From NCBI RefSeq assembly GCF_003334815.1, contig NZ_QOWO01000017.1: DNA of 64,000 bases. The stretch is one strand, 5' to 3'. This document shows positions 1,084 to 54,622 of this stretch, in pieces (the first letter of the stretch is position 1; each line of letters opens with the position of its first letter). The notes beneath the pieces were generated by a model. The model saw only the letters and a program-made list of their open reading frames with translations, did no database searches and was not told the origin of the DNA. The position numbers and the translations under genes are program-made. Origin of the DNA: Escherichia coli (GTDB taxonomy: Bacteria; Pseudomonadota; Gammaproteobacteria; Enterobacterales; Enterobacteriaceae).

Positions 1084-1157
1084 GAAAGACGCGCATTTGT
1101 TATCATCATCCCTGAATTCAGAGATGAAATTTTGGCCACTCACGAGTGGCCTTTTTC
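1084..1157 (+). ncRNA. micA: MicA (SraD) small regulatory RNA
   Basis: Sequence GAAAGACGCGCATTTGTTATCATCATCCCTGAATTCAGAGATGAAATTTTGGCCACTCACGAGTGGCCTTTTT matches MicA as I recall it; ends in a terminator hairpin plus U-tract; lies between luxS and gshA. Confidence 0.85.
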
Positions 1158-4065: not shown

Positions 4066-4142
4066 TGGTGCATCCGGGAGGATTCGAACCTCCGACCGCT
4101 CGGTTCGTAGCCGAGTACTCTATCCAGCTGAGCTACGGATGC
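4066..4142 (-). tRNA. argV: tRNA-Arg (anticodon ACG)
   Basis: Reverse complement reads GCATCCGTAGCTCAGCTGGATAGAGTACTCGGCTACGAACCGAGCGGTCGGAGGTTCGAATCCTCCCGGATGCACCA. Confidence 0.95.
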
Positions 4143-4205
4143 ATCGGGAAAACTTATTCTACTGCTGATATTGATACCGCTACTAAAGCCATATCAATTA
4201 AGAGA

Positions 4206-4223
4206 TGGTGCATCCGGGAGGAT
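4206..4223 (-). repeat. Second tRNA-Arg 3'-end fragment inside the inter-tRNA repeat unit
   Basis: tggtgcatccgggaggat matches the tRNA-Arg 3' end; the ~275 bp unit is repeated. Confidence 0.7.
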
Positions 4224-4340
4224 TACTCGCCTTGCGGCTCGCCCTTCGGGCCGTTGCTAAAGCAACGTTATCATCCCTAGTGCCTGCGGTTAATACCGCT
4301 ATCTCTTCGATACCTTCATTGCTGAAGGTTACGGAGAATA

Positions 4341-4417
4341 TGGTGCATCCGGGAGGATTCGAACCTCCGACCGCTCGGTTCGTAGCCGAGTACTCTATCC
4401 AGCTGAGCTACGGATGC
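4341..4417 (-). tRNA. argV: tRNA-Arg (anticodon ACG), second copy
   Basis: Identical 77 nt sequence to the copy at 4066..4142. Confidence 0.95.
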
Positions 4418-4420
4418 AAA

Positions 4421-4513
4421 TGGCGGTGAGGCGGGGATTCGAACCCCGGATGCAGCTTTTGACCGCATACTCCCTTAGCAGGGGAGCGCCTTCAGCCTCT
4501 CGGCCACCTCACC
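4421..4513 (-). tRNA. serV: tRNA-Ser (anticodon GCU)
   Basis: Reverse complement reads GGTGAGGTGGCCGAGAGGCTGAAGGCGCTCCCCTGCTAAGGGAGTATGCGGTCAAAAGCTGCATCCGGGGTTCGAATCCCCGCCTCACCGCCA, a long-variable-arm Ser tRNA. Confidence 0.95.
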
Positions 4514-18343: not shown

Positions 18344-19783
18344 ATGTCTATTGTGGTGAAAAATAACATTCATTGGGTTGGTCAACGTGACTGGGAAGTG
18401 CGTGATTTTCACGGCACGGAATATAAAACGCTGCGCGGCAGCAGCTACAATAGCTACCTCATCCGCGAAGAAAAAAACGTGCTGATCGACACCGTCGACC
18501 ATAAATTCAGCCGCGAATTTGTGCAGAACCTGCGTAATGAAATCGATCTGGCGGATATCGATTACATCGTGATTAACCATGCAGAAGAGGACCACGCTGG
18601 GGCGCTGACCGAACTGATGGCACAAATTCCCGATACGCCGATCTACTGTACTGCCAACGCTATCGACTCGATAAATGGTCATCACCATCATCCGGAGTGG
18701 AATTTTAATGTGGTGAAAACTGGCGACACGCTGGATATCGGCAACGGCAAACAGCTCATTTTTGTCGAAACACCAATGCTGCACTGGCCGGACAGCATGA
18801 TGACTTACCTGACAGGCGACGCGGTGCTGTTCAGTAACGATGCTTTCGGTCAGCACTACTGTGACGAGCATCTGTTCAACGATGAAGTGGATCAGACGGA
18901 GCTTTTCGAGCAGTGCCAGCGTTACTACGCCAATATCCTGACGCCGTTCAGCCGCCTGGTAACGCCGAAAATTACCGAGATCCTGGGCTTTAACTTACCA
19001 GTCGATATGATAGCGACCTCCCACGGCGTGGTCTGGCGCGATAACCCGACGCAAATTGTCGAGCTGTACCTGAAATGGGCGGCTGATTATCAGGAAGACA
19101 GAATCACCATTTTCTACGACACCATGTCGAATAACACCCGCATGATGGCTGACGCTATCGCCCAGGGGATTGCGGAAACCGACCCACGCGTGGCGGTGAA
19201 AATTTTCAACGTCGCCCGAAGCGATAAAAACGAAATCCTGACCAATGTCTTCCGCTCAAAAGGCGTGCTGGTCGGCACTTCGACGATGAATAACGTGATG
19301 ATGCCGAAAATCGCCGGGCTGGTGGAGGAGATGACTGGTTTACGCTTCCGTAACAAACGCGCCAGTGCTTTCGGCTCTCACGGCTGGAGCGGCGGTGCGG
19401 TGGATCGTCTTTCCACGCGCCTGCAGGATGCGGGTTTCGAAATGTCGCTCAGCCTGAAAGCCAAATGGCGACCAGACCAGGACGCTCTGGAGTTATGCCG
19501 TGAACACGGTCGCGAAATCGCCCGTCAGTGGGCGCTCGCGCCGCTGCCGCAGAGCACGGTGAATACGGTAGTTAAAGAAGAAACCTCTGCCGCCACGACG
19601 GCTGACCTCGGCCCACGGATGCAGTGCAGCGTCTGCCGGTGGATTTACGATCCGGCAAAAGGCGAGCCAATGCAGGACGTTGCACCAGGAACGCCGTGGA
19701 GTGAAGTCACGGATAACTTCCTGTGCCCGGAATGCTCCCTCGGCAAAGACGTCTTTGACGAACTGGCATCGGAGGCAAAATGA
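18344..19783 (+). CDS. norV: Anaerobic nitric oxide reductase flavorubredoxin
   Basis: 479 aa; metallo-beta-lactamase-like di-iron domain, flavodoxin domain and C-terminal rubredoxin CxxC pairs. Confidence 0.95.
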
Positions 19784-50969: not shown

Positions 50970-52334
50970 ATGTCCACAATTACATTGTTATGCATTGCGT
51001 TAACTGGCGTAATCATGCTGTTGCTGCTGGTCATCAAGGCAAAGGTACAACCATTCGTTGCTCTGCTCCTCGTCAGCCTGTTAGTCGCACTTGCGGCGGG
51101 TATACCGGCGGGCGAAGTGGGTAAAGTGATGATCGCCGGGATGGGCGGTGTGCTTGGTTCCGTCACTATTATTATTGGTCTGGGCGCTATGCTGGGGCGT
51201 ATGATCGAACACTCTGGTGGTGCAGAGTCACTGGCTAATTATTTCAGTCGCAAGTTAGGTGACAAACGAACTATCGCTGCGCTGACTCTGGCAGCGTTCT
51301 TCCTCGGTATTCCCGTCTTCTTTGATGTCGGCTTTATTATTCTTGCGCCAATCATTTACGGTTTTGCCAAGGTTGCCAAAATATCGCCACTCAAATTTGG
51401 CCTGCCTGTCGCTGGGATCATGCTCACTGTTCACGTGGCGGTACCGCCGCATCCAGGCCCTGTCGCCGCAGCGGGGTTACTCCACGCAGACATCGGCTGG
51501 CTAACCATCATCGGTATTGCGATTTCTATTCCCGTAGGGGTTGTTGGCTACTTTGCAGCGAAAATAATCAATAAGCGCCAATATGCGATGTCAGTAGAAG
51601 TACTGGAACAGATGCAACTGGCTCCGGCCAGTGAGGAAGGCGCGACAAAATTAAGCGATAAAATAAATCCACCGGGCGTCGCGCTGGTCACCTCGCTAAT
51701 TGTTATTCCTATCGCGATTATCATGGCGGGTACGGTTTCCGCAACACTGATGCCGCCTTCGCATCCCCTGCTTGGTACGCTACAGCTGATCGGCTCACCA
51801 ATGGTAGCTCTAATGATTGCGCTGGTGCTGGCATTCTGGTTATTGGCTTTACGTCGCGGCTGGAGCTTACAACACACCAGCGACATTATGGGCTCAGCGC
51901 TTCCTACTGCGGCGGTAGTGATTTTGGTTACTGGTGCTGGAGGGGTATTTGGCAAAGTGCTGGTGGAATCGGGCGTCGGCAAAGCCCTTGCCAACATGCT
52001 ACAAATGATTGACCTGCCTCTGTTACCAGCCGCATTTATTATTTCACTGGCGCTGCGTGCATCGCAGGGGTCAGCAACCGTAGCAATACTGACAACCGGC
52101 GGGTTACTCTCAGAAGCGGTGATGGGATTGAATCCGATTCAGTGCGTATTGGTGACGCTGGCAGCCTGCTTTGGTGGGCTTGGTGCGTCACATATTAATG
52201 ACTCAGGGTTCTGGATTGTGACCAAATATCTGGGGTTATCGGTAGCAGACGGTCTGAAAACCTGGACAGTGTTAACGACCATTCTCGGTTTTACCGGATT
52301 CTTAATTACCTGGTGCGTATGGGCGGTAATTTGA
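50970..52334 (+). CDS. ygbN: GntP-family acid sugar permease YgbN
   Basis: 454 aa polytopic membrane protein recognised as YgbN. Confidence 0.9.
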   Translation: MSTITLLCIALTGVIMLLLLVIKAKVQPFVALLLVSLLVALAAGIPAGEVGKVMIAGMGGVLGSVTIIIGLGAMLGRMIEHSGGAESLANYFSRKLGDKRTIAALTLAAFFLGIPVFFDVGFIILAPIIYGFAKVAKISPLKFGLPVAGIMLTVHVAVPPHPGPVAAAGLLHADIGWLTIIGIAISIPVGVVGYFAAKIINKRQYAMSVEVLEQMQLAPASEEGATKLSDKINPPGVALVTSLIVIPIAIIMAGTVSATLMPPSHPLLGTLQLIGSPMVALMIALVLAFWLLALRRGWSLQHTSDIMGSALPTAAVVILVTGAGGVFGKVLVESGVGKALANMLQMIDLPLLPAAFIISLALRASQGSATVAILTTGGLLSEAVMGLNPIQCVLVTLAACFGGLGASHINDSGFWIVTKYLGLSVADGLKTWTVLTTILGFTGFLITWCVWAVI

Positions 52335-52427: not shown

Positions 52428-53420
52428 TTACTCGCGGAACAGCGCTTCGATATTCAGCCCCTGCGTTTGCAGGATTTCACGCAAACGGCGCAGGCCTTCA
52501 ACCTGAATCTGGCGAACACGTTCACGGGTGAGGCCAATTTCACGACCTACATCTTCCAGTGTTGCCGCTTCGTACCCCAGCAAACCGAATCGACGTGCCA
52601 GCACTTCACGCTGTTTGGCGTTCAGCTCGAACAGCCATTTGACGATGCTCTGCTTCATATCGTCATCTTGCGTGGTATCTTCCGGACCGTTCTATTTTTC
52701 ATCGGCCAGGATGTCCAGCAACGCTTTTTCGGAATCACCACCCAGCGGGGTGTCTACCGAGGTAATGCGCTCGTTAAGACGAAGCATACGGCTGACGTCA
52801 TCAACTGGCTTATCCAGTTGCTCTGCGATCTCTTCCGCACTTGGTTCATGGTCCAGCTTATGGGACAACTCACGTGCGGTTCGCAGGTAAACGTTCAGCT
52901 CCTTTACGATGTGAATCGGCAAACGAATAGTACGGGTTTGGTTCATAATCGCCCGTTCAATCGTCTGGCGAATCCACCAGGTTGCGTATGTTGAGAAGCG
53001 GAAACCACGTTCCGGGTCAAACTTCTCTACCGCGCGGATCAGCCCCAGGTTGCCCTCTTCGATAAGGTCCAGCAACGCCAGACCACGATTGCCATAACGG
53101 CGGGCAATTTTTACCACCAGACGCAAGTTACTCTCGATCATCCGGCGGCGAGAGGCGACATCTCCACGCAGTGCGCGACGCGCAAAATAAACTTCTTCTT
53201 CGGCCGTTAACAGTGGTGAATAACCAATCTCACCAAGGTAAAGCTGAGTCGCGTCCAACACACGCTGTGTGGCTCCCTGCGATAACAGTTCCTCTTCGGC
53301 CAAATCGTTATCACTGGGTTCCTCTTCTACTAAGGCCTTTTCGTCAAAAACCTCAACTCCGTTCTCATCAAATTCCGCATCTTCATTTAAATCATGAACT
53401 TTCAGCGTATTCTGACTCAT
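52428..53420 (-). pseudogene. rpoS: RNA polymerase sigma factor RpoS interrupted by an in-frame amber codon at Glu243 (TAG at 52692..52694); predicted product is residues 1-242
   Basis: N-terminal ORF (start [11 protein letters not shown] at 53420) ends ...LDILADEK-stop; the same frame continues [19 protein letters not shown]... to the normal C-terminus ...NIEALFRE. Confidence 0.9.
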
Positions 53421-53482: not shown

Positions 53483-54622
53483 TTATCGCTGCGGCAAATA
53501 ACGCAGCGGGTTTACGGATTTCCCCTTGTAACGAATTTCAAAATGCAAGCGTGTTGAACTGGTTCCGGTGCTACCCATGGTTGCTATTTTTTGCCCCGCC
53601 TTCACTTCTTGTTGTTCCCGGACCAGCATTGTGTCGTTATGGGCGTAGGCACTCAGGTAATCATCATTATGTTTGATGATAATCAGATTACCGTAGCCGC
53701 GCAGCGCGTTACCAGCATAAACAACGCGGCCATCTGCGGTCGCGATAATTGCCTGTCCTTTGCTGCCTGCGATATCAATCCCCTTGTTGCCCCCCTCAGA
53801 AGCGCCAAAGGTTTCGATCACTTTGCCCTCAGTCGGCCAGCGCCAGGTGGAGATAGGCGTACTGGTTGATGTACTGCTGACAGTTGGCTCGGTTGTGCTT
53901 GCTGTTGGTACCGTTACAGGCGCTGTGACCGTGGTCGCAGCTGGCTTGTTGTTCGGCAACATTTTGTTAGCACTCTGTTCACCCGAAGATTCAGAATACG
54001 TAATTGTCGGTTGCGACGCAACAGCAACGGTGGAATTTTGTGCAGGCTTGATCACAACTCCTTGCTCTGCTGCGTCGGCCTGGGTAATGGCATTTCCGCC
54101 AGTGATTGGCGTACCGGAAGCATTACCCACCTGCAAGGTCTGACCAACGTTCAGCGCGTATGGTGCCTGAATATTGTTGCGCTGAGCAAGGTCACGGAAA
54201 TCGTTGCCAGTAATCCAGGCGATATAGAAAAGTGTGTCGCCTTTTTTCACGGTATAGGTACTGCCGCTATAACTGCCTTTCGGAATGTTCCCATACTGAC
54301 GGTTATAGACGATGCGTCCGTTTTCCATCTGTACCGGCTGCTGAGCTACTGGCTGCACTGGCTGGATTTGCGGTTGTTGAGTAGCCTGAATTTGTGGCTG
54401 CTGTACCGGCTGAATTTGCGGTTGCTGCGCTGTAGACGTCGTCCCCATTTTCGGCGGCGGCGTAATCAACATACCAGAATTAGTATTTGCAGGCGCATTG
54501 CCATTAACGGAGCTGACCGGTGCCGGTGGATTTGAAGTGTCAGAACAGCCTGCCAGCCATAGCGAAACCAGTGACAAAGCCGCAATGCGGCGAACGGTGA
54601 ATTTTGGGCTTCCCGCGCTCAT
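53483..54622 (-). CDS. nlpD: Murein hydrolase activator lipoprotein NlpD (LysM plus degenerate M23 peptidase domain)
   Basis: 379 aa; lipobox LAGCS; Pro/Gln-rich repeat region; LysM and M23 domains. Confidence 0.95.
54340..54432. repeat. Imperfect tandem repeats inside nlpD encoding the (Q)QPQIQ(P/A)V(Q) repeat
   Basis: Repeated ctgaatttg(c/t)gg(c/t)tg(c/t)tg units on the plus strand. Confidence 0.6.

Follow-up and report, generated by a model that had tools for sequence, protein, structure and literature searches.

The closest described counterpart of the rpoS allele considered here was found when rpoS was sequenced in ten VTEC isolates (Dong et al. 2009, PMC2700278). One non-synonymous change was encountered, a G-to-T substitution in codon 243 that creates a stop, and it was carried by the O121:NM isolate N99-4390. 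This was the only isolate with low catalase, it showed uniformly good growth on succinate, and it was classed as RpoS-negative by the authors (PMC2700278). The number of residues lost in the N99-4390 allele was stated there as 86, whereas a recount gives 88. The loss of rpoS function during culture has also been documented. In stabs, rpoS-null variants were reported to become dominant within a week (PMC3240573), and the RpoS-null strains of a carefully handled natural collection were found to have arisen in the laboratory (PMC3484664).

The same change in codon 243 was found in the 64-kb stretch of Escherichia coli DNA that was analysed here, referred to below as the window. On the minus strand, the rpoS reading frame that starts with the ATG at 53420 passes through ...CTG GCC GAT GAA AAA TAG AAC GGT CCG..., and the protein before the amber codon ends in ...LADEK. 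A preliminary description of this DNA had proposed that codon 243 is TAG through a single GAG-to-TAG change at 52694 and that the frame downstream of it is intact. Both points are borne out by the codon count and the reading frame, which past the amber codon is unbroken down to the normal TAA at 52430..52428. The codon count also agrees with the earlier reading of codon 33 as GAG (Glu). The features of the locus are as follows.

52428..53420, minus strand: rpoS, 993 nt counting its normal stop, with an amber codon inside the frame (a single mismatch from annotated rpoS; NF004207; nlpD-rpoS arrangement)
52692..52694, minus strand: TAG in place of GAG (Glu) at codon 243, a premature amber stop; the plus strand has A at 52694, where relatives have C
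52695..53420, minus strand: predicted RpoS(1-242), with regions 1.2, 2 and most of 3 (Pfam; 27.7 kDa)
52428..52691, minus strand: remainder of the rpoS frame, codons 244-330 and stop, predicted to be untranslated; end of the linker and sigma region 4 (Pfam r4; PDB 6fi7, 6ido)
52428..52658, minus strand: residual 76-aa ORF from Met255, called by gene callers as a separate Sigma70_r4 protein; leftover of the rpoS frame
53483..54622, minus strand: nlpD, located upstream in the nlpD-rpoS unit; no change compared with the closest relatives

The gene lies downstream of nlpD in the pcm-surE-truD neighbourhood, on which the open reading frames and the annotation of relatives agree. Its identity to annotated rpoS in the best-matching complete genomes listed is 99.9% (a single mismatch), and when all 993 nt were compared with the wild-type allele of the genomes 52F4 and G1/2, the sole difference was T versus G at nt 727. 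With codon 243 restored, the protein reached 604.6 bits against the NCBIfam equivalog NF004207 (cut-off 394) and 480.7 bits against TIGR02394 (cut-off 378.7). The truncated protein alone scored 452.2 bits against NF004207, matching profile positions 1-242 of 329. On the read-through frame, Pfam places r1.2 at 56-88, r2 at 94-163, r3 at 174-248 and r4 at 262-315; the domain order of the sigma-70 family (1.2, 2, 3, 4) is present in this frame, and the encoded product is without r4.

By alignment offset, we take residue 243 of RpoS to correspond to about residue 528 of sigma-70, in the linker between regions 3.2 and 4. Two constructs of sigma-S domain 4 are available from the PDB, one spanning residues 245-330 (6fi7) and the other joining residues 244-330 to the beta flap-tip helix (6ido). 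The amber stop removes, within one or two residues, this structural domain 4 (244/245-330). The loss of region 4, as put forward in the preliminary description, is confirmed by the position of Pfam r4, by the NCBIfam coverage of the truncated protein and by the PDB constructs. The sizes given there for a protein ending at residue 242 of 330 (about 28 instead of about 38 kDa) also hold, as the computed masses are 27.7 kDa for the 242-aa product and 38.0 kDa for the full protein of 330 aa.

Since rpoS is the last gene before the convergent ygbN, a polar effect of the stop is not expected. Immediately past the rpoS stop, the sequence shows a GC-rich hairpin and then TTTTCT; a scan for consensus terminators did not flag the rpoS terminator. 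The region between rpoS and mutS (42961-52334) is of the short K-12-like type, in which rpoS adjoins ygbN, and mutS does not differ from the mutS of relatives.

The in-frame premature stop at codon 243 takes out the domain-4 piece, and the allele is in this sense a nonsense allele. It is very probable that E243amber is a loss-of-function allele, brought about by a single G-to-T transversion, and that the phenotype of this strain would be RpoS-null. The strain is presumed to have no amber suppressor. Ribosomes terminating with RF1 would stop at the UAG after Lys242. The resulting product would keep regions 1.2, 2 and most of 3, and would lose the end of the 3.2-4 linker together with the whole of domain 4, the part that binds the flap-tip helix of beta and the -35 element. 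Lacking these two contacts, RpoS(1-242) would not be able to form a normal sigma-S holoenzyme, and the general stress regulon (katE, the glycogen genes and others) would be off or strongly reduced. Core polymerase would at the same time be freed for sigma-70, which would improve growth on poor carbon sources. The earlier suggestion that the strain is RpoS-attenuated is supported, by analogy, by N99-4390, in which the identical mutation goes together with low catalase and good growth on succinate. Gowrishankar and colleagues reportedly observed in 2003 that sigma-S without region 4 initiates in vitro on supercoiled templates; if so, the allele might be strongly attenuated rather than strictly null.

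An RpoS-deficient isolate would be expected to be stress-sensitive, catalase-poor and glycogen-poor, with altered biofilm and virulence-related traits, and to grow better on poor carbon sources. For this reason, phenotypes measured on the strain should not be generalised to its lineage.

The age of the mutation can be judged from close relatives. Both 52F4 (three base differences from the window in 36.5 kb) and G1/2 (seven base differences in 36.7 kb) have C at 52694. A still closer assembly was reached through two rare markers. One is NorV P456T (19709; norV 18344-19783, plus strand), which lies near the end of the rubredoxin domain and whose exact protein occurs on only 10 public contigs. 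The other is M24V (SNP 42816) in a 44-aa hypothetical ORF (42754-42885, minus strand) between ygbA and mutS, whose exact protein occurs on only 9. V24 of this ORF and T456 of NorV mark the same rare lineage, and they led to contigs of the draft GCA_021722305.1 with an intact rpoS. This draft, the closest public relative, matches the window at every base of 8344-29783 and 32751-52885 apart from 52694 (41,575 bases compared), and the rpoS called in it encodes 330 residues, region 4 included. Codon 243 is GAG in this sister assembly as it is in 52F4 and G1/2, and none of the 5,426 complete RefSeq E. coli genomes contained the mutant 55-mer centred on 52694. Because the stop is missing from the close relatives and from the complete genomes, these sequence comparisons indicate that it is derived, very recent and private to this isolate.

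In rpoS, 100 of the 330 codons are one step away from a stop, with 116 nonsense routes in total, so a nonsense mutation at codon 243 is not special in itself. What has to be explained is that the only difference from the sister genome should be a mutation of this kind. Under a uniform substitution model with these 116 routes, a single random substitution in the 41,575 bases would be an rpoS nonsense mutation with a probability of about 9e-4, which argues for selection or artefact rather than neutral drift. We infer a selective origin, most likely as a variant in which the loss of rpoS was favoured by nutrient limitation, long stationary phase or laboratory storage. The locus would then be a clean small example of selection, in which about 42 kb shared with the sister genome differ by nothing but the rpoS stop.

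The same mutation was found repeatedly elsewhere. The exact 242-aa product is present in 169 blocks of the public gene index and on 124 contigs. When 20 loci (about ten contigs) were fetched, codon 243 was TAG in every one; among them, E243am was seen on at least seven synonymous rpoS haplotypes and across at least four rpoS-mutS gene arrangements. The flanks of the other carriers diverge from the window by 0.25-3%. The distinct haplotypes and the diverged flanks show that the carriers represent independent mutations, and a shared clonal allele was rejected for the same reasons. The other carriers have at least three rpoS-mutS architectures different from that of the window, with MarR/UbiD-type or flavodoxin/lactamase_B insertions. 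In nlpD, the length of the Gln/Pro-rich repeat region varies, and the gene is 48 nt shorter in one E243am carrier (L005).

Other truncations that arise by a single nonsense step were counted in the same manner. On the upstream side, E197* was found on 126 contigs, E200* on 49, E217* on 120, E231* on 103 and E241* on 143; E243* (124) is followed by E247* on 53, Q251* on 99, E265* on 152 and Q270* on 158. With nine other nonsense truncations on 49-158 contigs compared with 124, the idea that codon 243 is a hotspot was rejected. Across the ten truncations counted, those that keep regions 1-3 are no commoner than those that cut into region 3.

The coincidence that points to selection could also be produced by an artefact. 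The A at 52694 might stem from an error of base calling or consensus, from a mixed culture in which it was a minority variant, or from editing of the base, with rpoS being wild-type in reality. Such an artefact would fit the fact that the window and the sister assembly differ nowhere else in 41,575 nt, and that none of the 5,426 complete genomes contains the mutant 55-mer. However, 124 independent public contigs have the same substitution, as does a published isolate sequenced by the Sanger method, which makes it biologically ordinary, and the probability that a random error would hit any of the 116 nonsense routes of rpoS is only about 9e-4. As selection for rpoS loss explains the nonsense coincidence better than error does, an error in the base is considered unlikely. 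A genuine stop might still be read through, either by a supE- or supF-like suppressor tRNA or by near-cognate decoding, and enough full-length RpoS might be made for an essentially normal stress response. The amber codon is followed by A, and the TAG A context favours suppression; supE44 is found in some laboratory strains that have an rpoS amber allele. Yet no tRNA with a CUA anticodon, and hence no candidate suppressor, was found within the 64-kb window, where the tRNAs are two Arg(ACG) and one Ser(GCT), and the lineage resembles a wild or surveillance lineage rather than a K-12 laboratory strain. Moreover, catalase and glycogen were still reduced in a supE44 strain with the codon-33 rpoS amber, and N99-4390 has low catalase with the very allele considered here. 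Read-through to this extent is extremely improbable.

The truncated protein might instead retain some function. RpoS(1-242) could be a partly active sigma factor with altered specificity for extended -10 or supercoiled promoters, acting alone or with a re-initiated 76-aa region-4 fragment, so that the regulon would be tuned and not abolished. Sigma-S deleted for region 4 is reported to retain activity in vitro, and 36 nt beyond the amber stop the frame contains an ATG (Met255). The 76-aa ORF that starts there is called as a separate Sigma70_r4 gene in public contigs. However, the computed anti-Shine-Dalgarno pairing is -0.7 kcal/mol before Met255, which is essentially none, compared with -6.5 kcal/mol at the native rpoS start, and it is weaker than that of about 72% of all plus-strand ATGs. 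Judged from the sequence before this ATG, the 76-aa ORF is probably not expressed, and a split sigma factor formed by re-initiation at Met255 was rejected for lack of Shine-Dalgarno pairing. Nor do the contig counts favour a retained function: E197* and E217*, which also remove region 3, are as common as E243* (126 and 120 versus 124 contigs), and there is no sign of special favour for keeping regions 1-3. N99-4390 with this allele behaved as RpoS-negative, and a partly active sigma factor, with or without the fragment, appears very improbable. A related and still quite improbable proposal is that RpoS(1-242) without region 4 continues to transcribe a subset of promoters that do not need the -35 contact, and that recurrent stops before domain 4 re-tune the stress regulon. 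For the TAG at codon 243, eight of the nine single-base changes restore a sense codon, located in the linker, and if the activity were partial in this way, the allele would be easily reversed. Loss of sigma-S function by a real and recently selected stop is the reading that is retained.

Several other features were observed in the window. A tRNA cluster (4066-4513, minus strand, and 4273-4334) contains only two tRNA-Arg(ACG) genes and one tRNA-Ser(GCT) gene. Over the first 28 kb, nine of the ten differences between the window and G1/2 cluster in the spacer between tRNA genes, a pattern that looks like gene conversion between repeated spacers. The gene for the MicA sRNA (1084-1155, plus strand) is located between luxS and gshA (Rfam RF00078, 83.9 bits). 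Towards the other end, a type I-E CRISPR array of six repeats with a 61-nt period lies downstream of iap (63565-63903), and directly after it follows the end of an IS421 (IS4-like) element (63914-64000). The array of G1/2 has one unit fewer, and its divergence from the window begins at 63721.

When compared with the known inactivating or attenuating alleles of rpoS, the allele of the window takes an ordinary place. The K-12 rpoS(Am) allele at codon 33 resembles it in being an amber nonsense mutation that arose in culture and left the downstream frame intact. In rpoS(Am33), however, re-initiation gives an N-terminally truncated and partly active protein, whereas the predicted loss in the window is C-terminal and without a usable restart; the codon-33 TAG of K-12 is absent from the window, which has GAG there. 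A 3' duplication of the rpoS819 type, which replaces C-terminal residues, is not present either, as the gene in the window is free of indels and differs in one base. The allele is also unlike the frameshifts found in MC4100 stabs (PMC3240573). The null and attenuated alleles that are generally obtained from stabs, chemostats and long stationary phase, and that are discussed in terms of GASP and the SPANC trade-off, are a closer match: as in the window, they are private, recent and inactivating point mutations in an otherwise unchanged locus, and nothing material is different.

The greatest likeness is to N99-4390, with which the window shares the identical G-to-T change of codon 243 to TAG, a C-terminally truncated RpoS and GAG at codon 33. 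The genetic background is not the same: in N99-4390, codons 119, 154 and 191 carry synonymous differences, whereas the window has a K-12-like locus of the phylogroup-A type with rpoS next to ygbN. These sequence differences indicate that the E243am mutations of N99-4390 and of the window are independent events. The analysis adds nothing new to the knowledge of rpoS polymorphism, and its use is that of a warning label on the strain: E243amber is an already published allele, and one of many rpoS nonsense alleles that are about equally common.
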